Part shown: piece after piece, positions 1,324-5,705 of the stretch
How positions within the stretch are numbered: position 1 is the stretch's first letter
Layout: each line of letters starts with the position of its first letter
IMG/VR virus record: IMGVR_UViG_3300045988_008128
Span: 1-5,705 of that record
Strand: one strand, 5' to 3'
Length of the DNA: 5,705 bases
Origin: a virus
Notes under the pieces: generated by a model
Told to the model about the DNA's origin: nothing
Seen by the model: only the letters and a program-made list of their open reading frames with translations
Database searches by the model: none
Translations under genes and position numbers: made by a program

Positions 1324-2256
1324 ATGGATCCTATTTTAGGAACATTATTGCAGTTTGGTTTGCCAGCACTCATAAACGTAGGCGGGCAACTGCTGCAAAC
1401 TGGTATCAAAAATATCAGCTCAGGCAGTGGACAACAGACGATGAGCGGTACAACAAACACAAGCAGCAACACAACCACAACGACCGAAGGAAGCACCACA
1501 GAAGCAGGAACCAGCGTAAAAACGGGCAGTATATCGGGCATCGTGGACGCACTAAAAACTGCAATGGGTACGCCAACAGGCAATAACGCAGCAGCGGCAG
1601 GAGCGTTCAACGCCGGACAAGCACAGACAGCAAACAACCTACAAAGCGGAATGTGGAGCATGGCAAACACCATGAACATGCTCTCAAACATAGCCGCAAA
1701 CGGCCTGAACCTTGCAAGTCAAACAAGCGCACAAAAATACAACTCTGCAGAAGCAGCAGCACAAAGAGCATGGCAAGAACAAATGTCAAACACCAGCTAT
1801 CAACGTGGCGTAAAAGACATGAAGGCAGCCGGATTAAACCCAGTACTTGCAGCATACAACGGCTTCGGCGCAGGTCTGGCACCGAGCGGAGGAACAGCAA
1901 GCAGCGGAATCCAAAGCTTTAGCCACACTCAGAGCGCAGCAATCCCAACAGCGCACACCGCAAACATGCAAGCTATGTATGACTACGGCAACAACACAGC
2001 CCAGTTCTTACAGAACGCAATGCAGACCATAAGCACAGCAAAAGAAACAAGTCAATACGGAATGGCAAGAACCATGGAGCAAATTGCAAACCAAGTTGGA
2101 ACAACATCTGCAAAGAGCGTACAAGACATCACGAAGAGCGAAAGCAGCACCAGCACACAAGACAGGCTCGGCGCACTGGACAAGCTACTACCGAGCGGAA
2201 ACAGCCACGGTGGTGGCGGAAACAGCCACGGTGGTGGCGGTGGTCGTGGAAGATAA
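1324..2256 (+). CDS. VP2: Minor capsid / DNA pilot protein VP2 (phiX174 H analogue).
   Basis: The SD-like GGGGG at 1313-1317 lies 6 nt before the ATG. The N-terminus is hydrophobic (MDPILGTLLQFGLPALINVGG) and is followed by Thr/Ser/Ala/Gln-rich low complexity. The motif QEQMSNTSYQRGVKDMKAAGLNPVLAAY matches my memory of the conserved VP2 core (MSNTAYQR..DMK.AGLNP.LAY). The gene sits directly after VP1, and the C-terminal tail is glycine-rich. Confidence 0.8.
   Translation: MDPILGTLLQFGLPALINVGGQLLQTGIKNISSGSGQQTMSGTTNTSSNTTTTTEGSTTEAGTSVKTGSISGIVDALKTAMGTPTGNNAAAAGAFNAGQAQTANNLQSGMWSMANTMNMLSNIAANGLNLASQTSAQKYNSAEAAAQRAWQEQMSNTSYQRGVKDMKAAGLNPVLAAYNGFGAGLAPSGGTASSGIQSFSHTQSAAIPTAHTANMQAMYDYGNNTAQFLQNAMQTISTAKETSQYGMARTMEQIANQVGTTSAKSVQDITKSESSTSTQDRLGALDKLLPSGNSHGGGGNSHGGGGGRGR
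2197..2238 (+). repeat. Perfect 21-nt tandem duplication (2 copies) inside the VP2 C-terminus, encoding GNSHGGG twice.
   Basis: GGAAACAGCCACGGTGGTGGC occurs at 2197-2217 and is repeated exactly at 2218-2238. The duplication is in frame and is followed by GGRGR and the stop. Confidence 0.95.
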
Positions 2257-2259
2257 CTA

Positions 2260-2297
2260 TTGACAAACACAGAAAAGAGGTGTATATTATGGGTGTA
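2260..2297 (+). promoter_or_regulatory. Promoter P1 (sigma70/sigmaA-type) with an overlapping GGTGTA-N7-GGTGTA direct repeat, a candidate operator.
   Basis: TTGACA lies at 2260-2265, followed by a 17-nt spacer and TATATT at 2283-2288. GGTGTA occurs at 2279-2284 and 2292-2297. The site lies in the VP2/RHH intergenic gap, about 40 nt upstream of the ATG at 2333, and shares the 13-nt core AAAGAGGTGTATA with P2. Confidence 0.6.
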
Positions 2298-2332: not shown

Positions 2333-2542
2333 ATGAAAAACGTGACCAAAAGAATCAACATAAATCTGACAGACAGAGAAATCACAGCACTAGGAGCAAT
2401 CAAAGACGAAATGACACTCAGAGGGTGGAGCGGAAACACAAGCGACATCATCAGGGACGCAATAGCAGCTTACTGCACACAAGTAACAGGGTACACATTC
2501 GCAAACGAATGGAGCATTAAAACAACAAAAATCCATGATTAA
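2333..2542 (+). CDS. Small ribbon-helix-helix (CopG/Arc/MetJ-like) putative DNA-binding protein, 69 aa.
   Basis: The SD GAAAGGGG at 2318-2325 lies 7 nt before the ATG. The N-terminal pattern is KRININLTDRE (beta strand), ITALGAIKDEMTLRG (helix 1), a GNTS turn and DIIRDAIAAY (helix 2), which is the classic RHH layout. The ORF sits directly downstream of P1. The fold call is from pattern only. Confidence 0.6.
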   Translation: MKNVTKRININLTDREITALGAIKDEMTLRGWSGNTSDIIRDAIAAYCTQVTGYTFANEWSIKTTKIHD

Positions 2543-2550
2543 ATTGGACT

Positions 2551-2610
2551 TGACACGGAAAATTGTGTCAGTGGGCCCCAATAACATCAAGAAGGGTTAT
2601 TGGGGCCCAC
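2551..2610. repeat. Two abutting perfect stem-loops: a 6-bp stem at 2551-2570 and a 15-bp GC-rich stem at 2571-2610. They are candidate origin or RNA-structure elements.
   Basis: TGACAC (2551-2556) pairs with GTGTCA (2565-2570) around an 8-nt loop. GTGGGCCCCAATAAC (2571-2585) pairs perfectly with GTTATTGGGGCCCAC (2596-2610) around the 10-nt loop ATCAAGAAGG. No T-tract follows, so this is not a canonical intrinsic terminator. Confidence 0.85.
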
Positions 2611-2636
2611 TGAGGTGAAGAGGGTGAAACATCCAT

Positions 2637-3752
2637 ATGGGGTGCACAAGACCTTTGGTAAGATTCGCAGACGGCGAAATAACGACACTGAAAAAGTATC
2701 TACTGGCAGGAAAAAAACACAACAGTCAACTCAACATTGAAGGGCCATTCATGAATGAAAGCCTAGAAAAAAAGCTGCTGCGAAAGCTGAAAAGCGAAAA
2801 TGCACAAATACTGCCATGTGGACACTGTGCCGGCTGTAAAATGCAAAACGCAAGCAGCTGGGCAAACAGAATGGAGATGGAAATGCCATACCACGAAAAT
2901 GCGTGGTTTTTAACACTCACATACGACAATGAACACGTACCATGGTCTTACAATCAAGGTTTAGGCGTTAACAAAAAAACAGGCGAAATCATCATAGAAA
3001 ACTTAACACTGAACTATGAGGACATGCAAAAATTTTGGAAACGCCTAAGACGCTGGTTGGAATACCATGAAAGAAACACCGGGAAACTGATGTACTACCA
3101 AGCAGGCGAGTACGGCAGCCAGACACACAGGCCACATTATCATGCGATCGTGTACGATCTGCCGATAAAACCGGAAGAGCTGAAAATCTACAAACAGAAA
3201 AACGGCTTCAGATACTACAATGTTGAATGGCTAACAAAGCTGTGGGGTATGGGTCATGTAGTGGTAGCACCGGCAGAATGGAAAAACATGGCATACACCG
3301 CAAGATACACAACAAAAAAAATTTACGGCAAGGATTCAAAAAAATATTATGAAGAACTCGGAGTTTTACCAGAACGCTGCATGATGAGCAAAAATCCTGC
3401 AATCGGAATGCAGTACTATGAGGAACACAAAAATGAAATCTATGCAAAAGATGAAATCCAACTGAAAAACGGCAAGCGATGCAAACCGCCTAGATATTTC
3501 GATAAACTGTTTGACTTAGAGCATTCAAACAGTAAACCGCTATCTGAAGCAGAAAGTGAGACGATAGAAGACACAATAGTAAAAGCCGAATCTGAAGAAC
3601 TGAAAGCAATCAAAAGAGAACGCCGAAGAATCGCAAACGAAACGCTCTTTGCTCAGCTCAAGCAGACCGGCTTAACCATGCAAGAATATTATGACCTAAA
3701 AGATAAGAAAAATCAAGAAAAATTCAAAAAACTTATCCGAGAAGAAATTTAA
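2637..3752 (+). CDS. VP4: Replication initiation protein VP4 (HUH rolling-circle endonuclease, phiX174 A analogue).
   Basis: The N-terminus MGCTRPL fits the usual M.C..P start of microvirus Rep. A Cys cluster (CGHCAGC) is present, along with RCR motif 1 (FLTLTYD), motif 2 (HRPHYHAIVY, the HUH) and motif 3 (YTARYTTKK, tyrosine motif). The 371-aa size is typical. Confidence 0.92.
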   Translation: MGCTRPLVRFADGEITTLKKYLLAGKKHNSQLNIEGPFMNESLEKKLLRKLKSENAQILPCGHCAGCKMQNASSWANRMEMEMPYHENAWFLTLTYDNEHVPWSYNQGLGVNKKTGEIIIENLTLNYEDMQKFWKRLRRWLEYHERNTGKLMYYQAGEYGSQTHRPHYHAIVYDLPIKPEELKIYKQKNGFRYYNVEWLTKLWGMGHVVVAPAEWKNMAYTARYTTKKIYGKDSKKYYEELGVLPERCMMSKNPAIGMQYYEEHKNEIYAKDEIQLKNGKRCKPPRYFDKLFDLEHSNSKPLSEAESETIEDTIVKAESEELKAIKRERRRIANETLFAQLKQTGLTMQEYYDLKDKKNQEKFKKLIREEI

Positions 3753-3776
3753 AAGAACGGCTGAATAAAGGGAACT

Positions 3777-3814
3777 GGACGACGTGACACAAAAAAAAGT
3801 TACGTCGTCCTTTT
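3777..3814 (+). terminator. Rho-independent terminator after the Rep gene.
   Basis: GGACGACGTGAC (3777-3788) pairs with GTTACGTCGTCC (3799-3810), giving 12 bp with one G-U wobble. The loop is ACAAAAAAAA and the stem is followed by TTTT at 3811-3814. The structure begins 25 nt after the VP4 stop. Confidence 0.6.
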
Positions 3815-3816
3815 CA

Positions 3817-3861: not shown

Positions 3862-3899
3862 TTGACAAGTGTATGAAAGAGGTGTATAATAAAGGTGTA
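3862..3899 (+). promoter_or_regulatory. Promoter P2, a perfect sigma70 consensus, with GTGTA repeats at 13-nt spacing (candidate operator).
   Basis: TTGACA lies at 3862-3867, followed by exactly 17 nt and TATAAT at 3885-3890. AGTGTA occurs at 3868-3873, GGTGTA at 3881-3886 and GGTGTA at 3894-3899, with starts 13 nt apart. About three quarters of a 38-nt alignment to P1 is identical by my manual count. Confidence 0.7.
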
Positions 3900-3917
3900 G
3901 AAAGGATGGTGCTCAAA

Positions 3918-4079
3918 ATGACACTGAAAAGTTACAGAGTTGAAATGACAAACATAAAAACAGGTAAAAAAGAAATCCGTCACACAGTAGCAGAAAGCAA
4001 GAAACTCGCAAAATGTCTCATCTGGGTAAGAGAAGATATCATAAGCCACTGGAAAATAAACAAAATAGAAGAAGAGTAA
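3918..4079 (+). CDS. Hypothetical small protein (53 aa from ATG 3918, or 57 aa from ATG 3906), with no recognisable family.
   Basis: The ORF track gives 3816..4079, but its first 70-plus nt run through promoter P2, so the start must be downstream of about 3897. The SD AAAGGA at 3901-3906 lies 11 nt before ATG 3918, and ATG 3906 is the alternative. The sequence MTLKSYRVEMTNIKTGKKEIRHTVAESKKLAKCLIWVREDIISHWKINKIEEE is charged and has no TM segment. Confidence 0.5.
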   Translation: MTLKSYRVEMTNIKTGKKEIRHTVAESKKLAKCLIWVREDIISHWKINKIEEE

Positions 4080-4117
4080 ACATTAAAAACGTGAGGTTGA
4101 CGAAAAACAGCCTTGCG

Positions 4118-4131
4118 TTTTTTTTTTTTTT
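4118..4131 (+). repeat. T14 homopolymer in the intergenic region.
   Basis: Fourteen consecutive T were counted directly. They are preceded by a weak AAAAAC/GTTTTT stem (4103-4108 with 4117-4122) and followed immediately by an extended -10-like element. Confidence 0.95.
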
Positions 4132-4139
4132 GGTAAAAT
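4131..4139 (+). promoter_or_regulatory. Possible extended -10 promoter (TGgTAAAAT) for the late/structural gene block.
   Basis: TG at 4131-4132 is followed by one base and then TAAAAT at 4134-4139. A T-rich tract lies upstream. Only a weak -35 is present (TTGCGT at 4113-4118, with a 15-nt spacer). The element lies 22 nt upstream of the strong SD and ATG at 4161. Confidence 0.35.
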
Positions 4140-4160: not shown

Positions 4161-4280
4161 ATGGCATACCGCAAGACCGTTAAACCGAAGGTAGACAAGA
4201 AAATTTTCACCAACACCGCAAAGAAAACCAAAAAGATCAACGTGAACCCGAAACCGAGCAGAGGGGGAATCAGGCTGTGA
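4161..4280 (+). CDS. Small basic DNA-binding/packaging protein (phiX174 J / gokushovirus VP8-ORF8 analogue), 39 aa. It is absent from the supplied ORF track.
   Basis: The strong SD AAGGAGGTGG at 4148-4157 lies 3 nt upstream of the ATG. The translation is MAYRKTVKPKVDKKIFTNTAKKTKKINVNPKPSRGGIRL, with 13 of 39 residues K or R and no acidic residues except one D. The ...KKIN...RGGIRL C-terminus is what I recall for microvirus small basic proteins. Confidence 0.8.
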   Translation: MAYRKTVKPKVDKKIFTNTAKKTKKINVNPKPSRGGIRL

Positions 4281-4480
4281 GCAAAAGACCGTATCACCAA
4301 AAAGAACCCGGTATGATGAAAGTAAGATATGCAATCAACATCGAAAACAACATGCTGAAAGAGATCGAGGACGTAAGCCAGACGCTGGAACTGCCCAGAT
4401 CAAAAGTAACGAGGGCACTGCTGCGCTACGGTCTCGATAACATCACCACGAAACAGATCTATGAACTGGGAAAGGAATAA
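4277..4480 (+). CDS. Second ribbon-helix-helix-like putative DNA-binding protein (67 aa from GTG 4277, or 55 aa from ATG 4313).
   Basis: GTG 4277 overlaps the TGA of the upstream ORF (GTGA) and has AGAGGGGGA at 4259-4267 as its SD. The RHH pattern is KVRYAINIENN (beta strand), MLKEIEDVSQTLE (helix 1), a LPRS turn and KVTRALLRYGL (helix 2). Confidence 0.6.
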   Translation: MSKRPYHQKEPGMMKVRYAINIENNMLKEIEDVSQTLELPRSKVTRALLRYGLDNITTKQIYELGKE

Positions 4481-4483
4481 GCC

Positions 4484-4759
4484 ATGATTCTGGAAATTGT
4501 CGCAATCAAAGATGAACTCGCAGGAACCTTCGGCAACTTGATGGTGGTCAACGAAAAAGTTGCACAGCGCACTTTCAAGTGGATGACAGCAGAAAGCGAA
4601 AAGCCGGACTGCGACGACAAACGCATCTACAAGCTGGGCATGTACGACACCGAAACCGGCCTGATCCAGAGCCAGACACCGGAGCTAGTCTATAACATGG
4701 AACAGGAAAAAAAGCAGATGGAAGAACCGAAGAGACCGGCACGAGGTAAGAAAGCATGA
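4484..4759 (+). CDS. Hypothetical 91-aa protein, possibly the conserved gokushovirus non-structural VP5-like protein.
   Basis: The SD GGGAAAGGA at 4468-4476 lies 7 nt upstream of the ATG. The stop overlaps the VP3 start (ATGA at 4756-4759). The N-terminal pattern ILEIVAIKDELAGTFGNLMVVNEKVAQRTF and the later YKLGMYDTETGLI resemble my recollection of small conserved microvirus ORFs. This is from memory and unverified. Confidence 0.55.
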   Translation: MILEIVAIKDELAGTFGNLMVVNEKVAQRTFKWMTAESEKPDCDDKRIYKLGMYDTETGLIQSQTPELVYNMEQEKKQMEEPKRPARGKKA

Positions 4760-5265
4760 AAATCTTCAAACCCTACGAAAAAGAAAAACCGGAAGTCCGC
4801 TGCAACTGCTGCGGGAACATCATGGAGCCGGAATACAAAGAACGGTACGACGAGTACGGGCACCCATATCTGGAAAAAGTAGGCGAAGTAAACACCTATG
4901 AAAAAATCCAGAGCTACCGCGACCAATGCGACGTGATGGCAATTCTCAGCCGATACGCAGCAGGCGACGAAAGCGCACTCGCAACGCCGGGTTACTACAT
5001 CGACACGACGAAACTGCCGAAAACCTACACCGAATACCTGAACATGATGAACGAGCAGCGCGAAAAGTTCGACATGTTGCCGCTGGAAATCAGACAGAAG
5101 TTCGGCATGAACTTCCAGAACTGGGCAGCGACCGCAGGGGAAACGGAATGGCTTGAAAAAATGGGCATTTCGACGAAAAACGATGCTGAAGCACAGGCTG
5201 ATCAGAACAGTGAAACCGTCAAAATGACGAAAAAAGAGGAAAGCGAAGATGAACAGAAACAGTGA
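4756..5265 (+). CDS. VP3: Internal scaffolding protein VP3.
   Basis: The SD GAGGT at 4742-4746 precedes the ATG. The motifs EVNTYEKIQSYRDQCDVMAILSRYAAGDESAL, KLPKTYTEYLNMMNEQREKFDMLPLEIRQKF and an acidic tail match the gokushovirus VP3 (Chlamydia-phage scaffold) pattern. The gene lies immediately upstream of VP1 and overlaps it by 17 nt. Confidence 0.8.
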   Translation: MKIFKPYEKEKPEVRCNCCGNIMEPEYKERYDEYGHPYLEKVGEVNTYEKIQSYRDQCDVMAILSRYAAGDESALATPGYYIDTTKLPKTYTEYLNMMNEQREKFDMLPLEIRQKFGMNFQNWAATAGETEWLEKMGISTKNDAEAQADQNSETVKMTKKEESEDEQKQ

Positions 5266-5705
5266 ACAACACTATGCACAGGTACCTCATGCAGAAATCA
5301 GGCGCGCAAAATTTCAGCGAGATTTTAATCTGCTGACCACGATGAACGAAGGCGATCTTGTACCGATCTACCTTGACGAGGTGCTACCTGCAGACACCTT
5401 CAAAATCAATCTGAACGCGCTGGTGCGTATGGCAACACCTTTGTATCCTGTAATGGATAACTGTTACATGGACTTCTATTTCTTTTTCGTGCCTGCACGC
5501 CTACTGTGGAAGCACTTTCAAAACCTGATGGGTCAGAACGATTCCACATTCTGGGCAGAAACAACCGAGTACACGACACCAGTAACGACCGCACCAGAAG
5601 GAGGCTGGAAAGTGGGCACACTGGCTGACTACTTCGGAATCCCGACAGGCGTGAGCGGCCTGAAAGTGAACAGTCTGCCATTCAGAGCATATGCAAAGGT
5701 GTGGA
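5249..5705 (+). CDS. VP1: Major capsid protein VP1, N-terminal part. It runs off the window and continues at position 2.
   Basis: The ATG at 5249 is preceded by AAGAGGA (5233-5239). The translation MNRNSEQHYAQVPHAEIRRAKFQRDFNLLTTMNEGDLVPIYLDEVLPADTFKINLNALVRMATPLYPVMDNCYMDFYFFFVPARLLW is the canonical microvirus capsid N-terminus. No stop occurs before the window end, which is why the ORF track omits it. Confidence 0.92.
   Translation, partial: MNRNSEQHYAQVPHAEIRRAKFQRDFNLLTTMNEGDLVPIYLDEVLPADTFKINLNALVRMATPLYPVMDNCYMDFYFFFVPARLLWKHFQNLMGQNDSTFWAETTEYTTPVTTAPEGGWKVGTLADYFGIPTGVSGLKVNSLPFRAYAKVW
5587..5705. repeat. Terminal redundancy copy B, identical to 1..119.
   Basis: Exact 119-nt identity with the window start. 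Confidence 0.95.

Follow-up and report, generated by a model that had tools for sequence, protein, structure and literature searches.

The stretch of DNA analysed here (the window) comprises the 5,705 nt of IMG/VR virus record IMGVR_UViG_3300045988_008128, and all coordinates refer to it. Its two ends are identical over 119 nt (positions 1-119 and 5587-5705, 100% identity), which indicates a complete circular genome of 5,586 nt. The genome is that of a gokushovirus-type microvirus, a gut phage, and carries the gokushovirus gene set with every gene on the plus strand; the microvirus of about 5.6 kb described in an earlier note on this DNA was thus correctly recognized. That note also singled out two small open reading frames (ORFs), here termed ORF1 and ORF2, as possible ribbon-helix-helix (RHH) proteins. 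Both ORFs exist where the note placed them, the peptides it quoted are correct, and both are real genes under purifying selection. ORF1 belongs, on well-supported homology, to the CopG/RHH_1 family and is the first gene of a transcription unit that also contains the replication initiator Rep, whereas ORF2 in the late operon is probably a diverged relative. The features that bear on these two genes are as follows.

2260-2288, plus strand: P1, a promoter of sigma-70/sigma-A type (TTGACA-17-TATATT, 11/12 to consensus)
2333-2542, plus strand: ORF1, 69 amino acids (aa), CopG/RHH_1 family
2568-2613, plus strand: stem-loop between ORF1 and Rep, with an 18-bp perfect stem and the invariant loop ATCAAG
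2637-3752, plus strand: Rep (VP4), HUH rolling-circle replication initiator (Pfam REP_ORF2-G2P, E=1e-14)
3772-3815, plus strand: hairpin followed by TTTT after the Rep stop codon, recognized as a 12-17-bp inverted repeat and from the sequence itself
4277-4480, plus strand: ORF2, 67 aa, probably a diverged CopG-like RHH protein

Gene evidence and family assignment

ORF1 starts at ATG 2333, 7 nt downstream of the Shine-Dalgarno sequence AAAGGGG, and stops at 2542. ORF2 starts at GTG 4277, 8 nt downstream of the Shine-Dalgarno sequence GAGGGGGA, and stops at 4480; its start overlaps the stop codon of the preceding gene for a 39-aa protein (GTGA), which suggests translational coupling, and the equivalent start is ATG in one relative. 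Homologs form 42 clusters for ORF1 and 67 for ORF2 (at 90% identity), nearly all of them on contigs of at most about 6 kb. In pairwise comparisons with relatives, the ratio of nonsynonymous to synonymous substitution rates (dN/dS) ranges from 0.06 to 0.37 for ORF1 and from 0.07 to 0.24 for ORF2, and dS reaches about 1. The earlier note had allowed that the two ORFs might not be translated; the conserved Shine-Dalgarno sequences, positions and dN/dS values contradict this. A mini-ORF at ATG 2289 lies upstream of the predicted transcription start, has no Shine-Dalgarno sequence and was dismissed.

The ORF1 protein has the strand/helix A/N-cap/helix B layout of RHH_1. A strand with alternating polar and hydrophobic residues (KRININLT, K6-T13) is followed by helix A (residues 14-29), the loop GWSGN-TS, helix B (residues 36-52, N-cap NTS) and a conserved C-terminal tail, FANEW (...GYTFANEW...). 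An exhaustive HMMER search added 34 more distant representatives of the family. In the alignment built with them, R7, N9 and T13 never vary; N11, L12 and R41/A43/I44 in the core of helix B hardly do, and the remainder is about 30% identical. The three invariant residues lie, as does N11, on the side of the strand with which known RHH proteins read DNA.

Pfam RHH_1 is matched individually by 13 of 39 family members. One relative, P0115 (proteins and loci are cited by our working labels), matches the ORF1 profile at E=2e-14 and exceeds the RHH_1 cutoff (22.4 bits against 20.5) over profile positions 3-39 of 39. In hhalign, the ORF1 profile aligns with CopG in register (E=2.6e-4). RHH proteins account for four of the six best matches in a PDB sequence search with this profile, all sub-threshold, namely two ParD-family and two CopG/Arc/MetJ-family antidote entries. 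Two shallow family profiles (A1 and A2, effective number of sequences about 1.5-1.9) gave nothing informative against PDB or against each other. The AlphaFold2 (AF2) model, built as a monomer for each of the two proteins, shows for ORF1 an extended, unpaired N-terminal segment and helices at 14-29 and 36-52 (mean predicted confidence, pLDDT, 72.5); an unpaired extended N-terminus is expected in a monomer model of an RHH protein. Membership of ORF1 in the family is therefore well supported by transitive homology, through relatives such as P0115, and not by a direct match, and the RHH signature that the earlier note saw in ORF1 is borne out. By analogy with the family, ORF1 would dimerise and bind DNA through its ribbon. 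The ORF1 profile also matched, in seven separate stretches (E=6e-8), the 2,936-aa protein P0128, possibly a large protein in which RHH-like modules are repeated.

ORF2 is predicted to have a strand (RYAINIE), then helix A (24-37) and helix B (41-51), and beyond these a further C-terminal helix (58-66), also conserved. In direct scans of Pfam and NCBIfam, the window's ORF2 matched only RHH_3 and UBA, both below threshold. Its strand residues R17/I20/I22/E23 are invariant or nearly so and stand in register with the CopG strand. The ORF2 family proper is narrow (at least 69% identity); RHH_3 is matched sub-threshold by 10 of its 30 members (best E=0.0015), and every match to RHH_3, RHH_1 or RHH_9 falls under the curated cutoff. 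In 12 other genomes, the slot between the 39-aa gene and VP5 is occupied by an ORF that agrees with ORF2 in size and layout and is highly diverged in sequence, and a profile built from ORF2 alone matches these slot proteins (95.5%, E=1.5e-8). When the joint profile of ORF2 and slot proteins was searched against 177k PDB sequences, the best matches were ORF56 of plasmid pRN1 (7.6e-4) and CopG (1.2e-3), then AvtR, ArtA and TraM. In hhalign, the joint profile aligns with CopG from the first strand residue through helix B (94.7%, E=5.8e-8), and it also aligns in register with the ORF1 family (75.6%, E=2.4e-5). The CopG match is lost once the ORF2 sequences are omitted from the joint profile, so ORF2 contributes to it. 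These profile matches make it probable, with fairly good confidence, that ORF2 is a diverged CopG-like RHH protein bearing an extra C-terminal helix. Profile searches against RHH families, which the earlier note had proposed as a check, therefore lead to RHH_1 for the relatives of ORF1 and to CopG for the joint profile of ORF2; for the latter the support emerged only after the diverged slot proteins were added, and the structural side of the proposal was not confirmed.

Genomic arrangement and variation

P1 is the sole promoter-like site upstream of ORF1 and Rep. The order P1, ORF1, Rep, with no promoter-like site or T-run terminator in between, is kept in relatives: P1 precedes the ORF1 homolog by about 50 nt in the majority of 40 related genomes, and likewise in 29 of 29 further microvirus contigs, and the homolog stands between VP2 and Rep throughout these 40 + 29 genomes. 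The position directly behind P1 and ahead of Rep, as given in the earlier note, holds across these related genomes. The four closest deposited genomes, from human and pig faeces, have an identical gene order, and none of them carries an annotation for the ORF1 homolog. The RHH gene is promoter-proximal and co-oriented with rep in one transcription unit, as in the copG-repB arrangement of rolling-circle plasmids.

The stem-loop between ORF1 and Rep is maintained by compensatory double changes in 11 of 15 pairs among 16 diverse relatives, where whole stems are replaced, while the loop reads ATCAAG(A/G)G and a conserved AAATTTTGTGTCA precedes the stem at 2555-2567. Having no T-run, the structure is not a terminator; it is a candidate for the replication origin and Rep nick site, or for an element of mRNA processing or attenuation. 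The hairpin after Rep, which the automatic terminator scan missed because its loop is 10 nt long, is probably the terminator of the P1 unit. An Rfam scan gave no credible RNA family. Minus-strand promoter-like sites in the window are weak (9/12; at 3165, 3716 and 2055), lie inside Rep or VP2 and do not face the Rep start, although no dedicated search for antisense RNA was made.

The question of an operator centres on repeats at P1 and at a second promoter, P2, downstream of Rep.

2279-2297, plus strand: GGTGTA-N7-GGTGTA pair over the -10 box and predicted start site of P1
2292-2310, plus strand: inverted repeat GGTGT-N9-ACACC, located at the P1 start site or past it and shared by 39 of 41 genomes
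3862-3890, plus strand: P2, perfect consensus promoter (12/12) of an optional cassette
3868-3899, plus strand: three RGTGTA copies with a 13-nt period, spanning -35, -10 and +1 of P2
3906-4079, plus strand: small cargo ORF, 57 aa, driven by P2
4085-4133, plus strand: intrinsic terminator, stem-loop and T13, its T-run present in nearly all relatives

All four plus-strand copies of GGTGTA in the window are located at P1 and P2, which share a 38-nt block, and RGTGTA-N7-RGTGTA has three matches in the window against 0.00 expected. The RGTGTA repeats are kept across genomes whose ORF1 proteins are just 40-50% identical, and each of the 29 additional microvirus contigs retrieved by the motif encodes an ORF1-family protein about 50 nt downstream. 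Another 42 matches in the same scan came from contigs of unrelated phages, mostly large ones, which encode neither ORF1 nor a slot-family protein; in many cases a correctly spaced TTGACA precedes the match. A GTGTA about 4 nt after the -10 box proved to be enriched about 5-fold over scrambled controls (IMG/VR loci L044-L114 and L132-L197). Downstream of GGTG-TATAWT in non-microvirus contigs it occurred 42 times, against 9 and 8 for scrambled versions, and downstream of the extended -10 form TGg-TATAWT 66 times against 12; the consensus of these 66 sites is an A-tract, TTGACA, then TGTGGTATAAT-ATA-GGTGTA. Downstream ACAC partners often follow these generic sites and could form a 5'-terminal hairpin.

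GTGTA after the -10 box is thus probably a generic element of promoter and start-site grammar, probably that of Firmicutes-type hosts. We therefore rejected the GGTGTA pairs as an ORF1 operator, and the RGTGTA repeats are no evidence for a site specific to ORF1, since TATAAT-N4-GTGTA is also enriched in unrelated phages that have neither gene. The repeat that the earlier note reported as common to P1 and P2 is real; its interpretation as a shared operator does not stand. More generally, conserved promoter repeats can be host promoter grammar and not an operator. The inverted repeat at the P1 start (RGTGT-N9-ACACY) was likewise rejected as a palindrome read by a protein: at its outer pair A.T occurs 20 times, G.C 12 times, G.T 7 times and A.C never, with T.G at an inner pair, so that wobble is tolerated as in a base-paired stem. 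It is probably a small hairpin, formed in the 5' leader RNA or in single-stranded DNA.

ORF1 is subject to precise allele replacement. Compared with loci L032, L029 and L026, the window is 85-91% identical in nucleotide sequence over P1 and 92-99% identical over the hairpin and Rep, but exactly over ORF1 the identity is only 45-59%; the P2 cargo ORF shows the same kind of replacement. Such replacements, with beta-strand residues and promoter unchanged, were found in L026, L029, L032 and L033. The alleles have the strand and helix B in common; helix A and the C-terminal tail vary among them. The tail is FANEW... in the window and EEEDLPF, DDDDLPY or DDDDDLPF in others, and a third group has a short 54-aa form. 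Acidic tails with LPF or LPY occur in L001, L002, L014, L015, L017, L020-L023 and L026 and in proteins P0122, P0131, P0132, P0134, P0135 and P0143; the window allele has no LPF tip. These tips resemble the partner-binding C-terminal hexapeptide DDDIPF of SSB, the protein that binds single-stranded DNA (PMC5872125), which suggests that some ORF1 alleles bind partner proteins.

ORF2 lies within the structural-gene block, as the earlier note had it, among the following genes.

4131-4139, plus strand: extended -10 element TGGTAAAAT, directly after the T13 run of the terminator
4161-4280, plus strand: 39-aa basic protein (phrog_10695; identity among relatives 79-97%)
4484-4759, plus strand: VP5 (Pfam Phage_ORF5, E=1e-9)
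4756-5265, plus strand: VP3 scaffold protein (Pfam Chlamy_scaf, E=1e-32)
5249 across the junction to 1312, plus strand: VP1 major capsid protein (Pfam Phage_F, E=1e-126)
1324-2256, plus strand: VP2 pilot protein (PHROG pilot and minor tail families)

The element TGGTAAAAT (P3) is likely the late promoter for the 39-aa gene, ORF2, VP5, VP3, VP1 and VP2; in nearly all relatives a TGnTAnAAT stands behind the T-run, in some cases in duplicate. The 39-aa protein is probably a J/VP8-like DNA-packaging protein. ORF2 is optional, being present in 5 of 40 genomes, and the wider slot family in 17 of 38. Neither ORF2 nor the slot family is associated with the P2 cassette among the related genomes, so the link between ORF2 and P2 drawn in the earlier note was not upheld. 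The slot is reduced to a mere 16-nt gap in about 16 genomes, and in L001, L014 and L015 a hydrophobic peptide of 27-30 aa (e.g. MNEVQLIIKIVTLSLLIADLYMIVKMIRRK), possibly a membrane or lysis peptide, replaces ORF2.

The P2 cassette (promoter, cargo ORF and strong terminator; 3862-4133) was found in about 23 of 39 related genomes and looks like a moron-like module. Its cargo ORF is hypervariable, with 39-57% nucleotide identity against otherwise more than 90% identical backbones, and the cargo ORFs in relatives' cassettes are unrelated sequences. MG945186 has a P2 cassette 87% identical to that of the window, and the rest of its genome is divergent. L008, L024, L027 and L028 have, downstream of the terminator and the extended -10 element, an ORF of about 120-135 aa in the interval from Rep to the 39-aa gene; its motif (...YHxxGxAADI...) resembles, as far as we can judge, Peptidase_M15/VanY, and the product is presumably a lysis enzyme. 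The 3' end of VP2 (2195-2236) contains a perfect 21-nt tandem duplication that encodes GNSHGGG twice, followed by a Gly/Arg-rich C-terminus. The style of promoters and Shine-Dalgarno sequences, together with the nearest integrated relatives, points to a Firmicute as the probable host; the closest relatives by capsid are in genomes of Oscillospiraceae, Clostridia and Phascolarctobacterium.

Candidate roles of the two proteins

From its family and its position, we infer that ORF1 may be a CopG-like autoregulator of the ORF1-Rep operon, with ORF2 as a second, diverged CopG-like protein in the late operon; we consider the chances of this reading to be even. The early transcription unit would run from P1 through ORF1, its first gene, and the structured hairpin to Rep and the terminator. 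As a dimeric DNA-binding protein of CopG/RHH_1 type, ORF1 would bind at or near P1 and cap the transcription of itself and of the rolling-circle initiator, in a copy-control-like negative autoregulation modelled on the action of CopG for repB (pMV158) and of ORF56 on pRN1. ORF2, encoded in an optional and swappable slot and coupled in translation to the 39-aa protein, would probably bind DNA late in infection.

Several observations weigh against this reading. At P1, no overlapping operator specific to the system was found, only the RGTGTA repeats and the hairpin-like inverted repeat, an absence that so far does not exclude one. Where strand residue N11 is replaced by Y or F (RVNVYLT in P0115, RVNVFLT in P0116), the promoter motif is essentially unchanged. 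The partner-binding-like tails of several ORF1 alleles hint at roles beyond simple repression. The window's own ORF1 matched nothing in Pfam or NCBIfam (no Pfam match at E<=10), and its monomer model gave no significant Foldseek match in PDB or BFVD, the databases searched with both models, the best compact matches being the RHH antitoxins AtaR and ParD2 (E ~9). For ORF2, the structural results given below belong on the same side.

The main alternative, that ORF1 is a replication accessory factor, appears unlikely to us. Such a factor would bind near the origin or the hairpin at 2568-2613 and would help Rep to nick or recruit host replication proteins, in the manner of TraY, NikA and TraM with HUH relaxases. 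The ORF1 gene stands directly ahead of Rep, between P1 and a strongly covarying hairpin whose loop is invariant, and this placement would suit the role; so would the occurrence of TraM and ArtA among the PDB matches of the slot family, as well as the SSB-like acidic tips. However, the window allele lacks the LPF tip, and many gokushoviruses, integrated ones included, replicate with no ORF1 homolog. The gokushovirus origin is unmapped, so any part played by the hairpin is itself conjectural, and to our knowledge no accessory DNA-binding protein has been described as necessary for phiX-type initiators. A bolder conjecture, to which we give little credence, joins this idea with the variability of the locus: a gut gokushovirus clade would possess a modular regulatory layer undescribed for Microviridae, consisting of an RHH protein with fixed strand and swappable tail (some tails mimicking the SSB tip, (D/E)n-LPF), a second RHH slot and the P2 cassette. 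The RHH protein would then be a DNA-anchored adaptor that tethers host replication and repair proteins or Rep to the replicative form (RF), and would control replication mode, persistence or superinfection beyond repression.

The CopG-like assignment of ORF2 competes with the quite improbable alternative that ORF2 is a small three-helix protein, helix-turn-helix (HTH) or UBA-like, or an adaptor of the structural and assembly module that does not bind DNA. Its AF2 monomer model is a three-helix bundle (helices 24-37, 41-51 and 58-66; pLDDT 65.8) with a disordered N-terminus (residues 1-21, pLDDT below 50), and Foldseek found no significant match for it, the weak ones being UBA domains and LacI-type headpieces. 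In Pfam, UBA_ARI1 is matched by 24 of 30 family members and several HTH families are matched as well (E about 0.002-0.07). None of the UBA, HTH or LacI matches is significant, however, and the profile evidence for CopG and ORF56 (hhalign E=6e-8) is far stronger than any HTH signal. The conservation of the strand residues in register with CopG also argues for an RHH protein, and a monomer model is unreliable for obligate intertwined dimers such as RHH proteins and hence does not refute the assignment.

The earlier note saw in the two genes a possible early/late switch, or one that governs immunity or a carrier state. In such a scheme, ORF1, or ORF1 with ORF2, would silence P1 and P2 in an episome or prophage and exclude superinfecting relatives. 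The note called this unusual for a family usually regarded as strictly lytic, but that view of the family is outdated: there are records both of gokushoviruses as prophages and of carriage as episomes that confer immunity to superinfection (PMC7062461, PMC3091885). EC6098, a gokushovirus, is maintained in circular form and shows superinfection immunity, with no regulator or mechanism named (PMC7062461). Compatible with a switch are the sequence common to P1 and P2 upstream and at the start site, and the replacement of the ORF1 coding sequence alone between 85-99% identical backbones, which is reminiscent of immunity regions. The common motif is generic, however, and the swapped alleles keep identical strand residues and an identical P1, so their DNA specificity would not differ; this is unlike heteroimmunity of the lambdoid style.

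Genomic data point the same way. ORF1 relatives are absent from 185,579 representative bacterial and archaeal genomes, and nothing in the window exceeds the shuffle null for a dif/XerCD site. A capsid search retrieved integrated gokushovirus relatives (40-52% identity) in 76-797-kb Firmicutes contigs (L212, L215, L217, L218, L221, L227 and L234), three of them from the cultured isolates Oscillibacter sp. PC13, Phascolarctobacterium faecium DSM 14760 and Muriventricola aceti. These apparent prophages carry neither ORF1 nor slot-family RHH genes. The immunity or lysogeny reading thus receives no positive support, and we regard a switch as very unlikely. That both ORFs are chance reading frames or gene-caller artefacts is hardly conceivable: they are short (67-69 aa), window ORF1 has no direct Pfam match and some ORF2 database entries carry spurious 111-114-aa versions with alternative-frame N-terminal extensions from gene callers, but the proteins are conserved to about 30-40% identity with frame, Shine-Dalgarno sequence and position kept, and the selection analysis already refutes it.

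Comparison with known systems

The usual picture of microviruses is one of minimal phages that have no dedicated regulators. RHH repressors and the cop-rep layout are very well known, and what is new here is the viral context. The literature searched contained no paper that relates Microviridae to proteins of RHH or CopG type or to repressors, and CopG-like proteins are apparently unreported so far in this family. The accessory genes given for Microviridae in the main diversity survey are only methyltransferases, lysis peptidases and unassigned proteins of about 65 aa (PMC9239249). With the present assignments, two anonymous small-protein families of microviruses become putative CopG-like DNA-binding proteins. 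They are candidate genes for episomal persistence and superinfection immunity of the kind seen in another gokushovirus (PMC7062461), a role that is purely hypothetical here.

Among the known systems, Arc and Mnt (immI of phage P22) and omega (pSM19035) are small RHH repressors that bind repeats over promoters, and they were the model of the earlier note; in the window, unlike in these systems, no specific repeat operator is assigned, and there is no significant direct sequence match to them. The relaxosome RHH proteins TraY, NikA, TraM and ArtA act beside an HUH nuclease at the nick site. TraM and ArtA are weak PDB matches to the slot profile that do not reach significance (E=0.3-0.4), and origin binding by ORF1 or ORF2 would be hypothetical.

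ORF56 of the Sulfolobus plasmid pRN1 (PDB 2k9i/3ft7), a CopG-like copy-control repressor, is the best PDB match of the ORF2 slot profile. Its gene, like that of ORF1, specifies a small RHH protein and lies upstream of a replication-protein gene with which it is co-transcribed. However, its replicon is an archaeal plasmid and its partner gene encodes a primase-polymerase and not an HUH Rep, whereas ORF2 itself is located in the late operon and not beside Rep.

CopG (RepA) of the streptococcal rolling-circle plasmid pMV158 (PDB 1b01/2cpg; Pfam RHH_1) is a 45-aa beta-alpha-alpha protein with which both families align in register. The replicon here is viral, ORF1 has a conserved 17-aa C-terminal tail (FANEW) that CopG does not have, and a structured hairpin parts ORF1 from Rep. 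The 13-bp pseudosymmetric operator and the antisense RNA partner of the CopG system have no identified counterparts in the window, and repression by ORF1 is proposed by analogy. In both systems, an HUH rolling-circle Rep shares its operon with the RHH gene, which is the one proximal to the promoter. ORF1 in the cop-rep position gives concrete, testable access to the question of how Rep dose and RF copy number might be set in a gokushovirus, and its layout with Rep ties together the rolling-circle modules of phages and plasmids.

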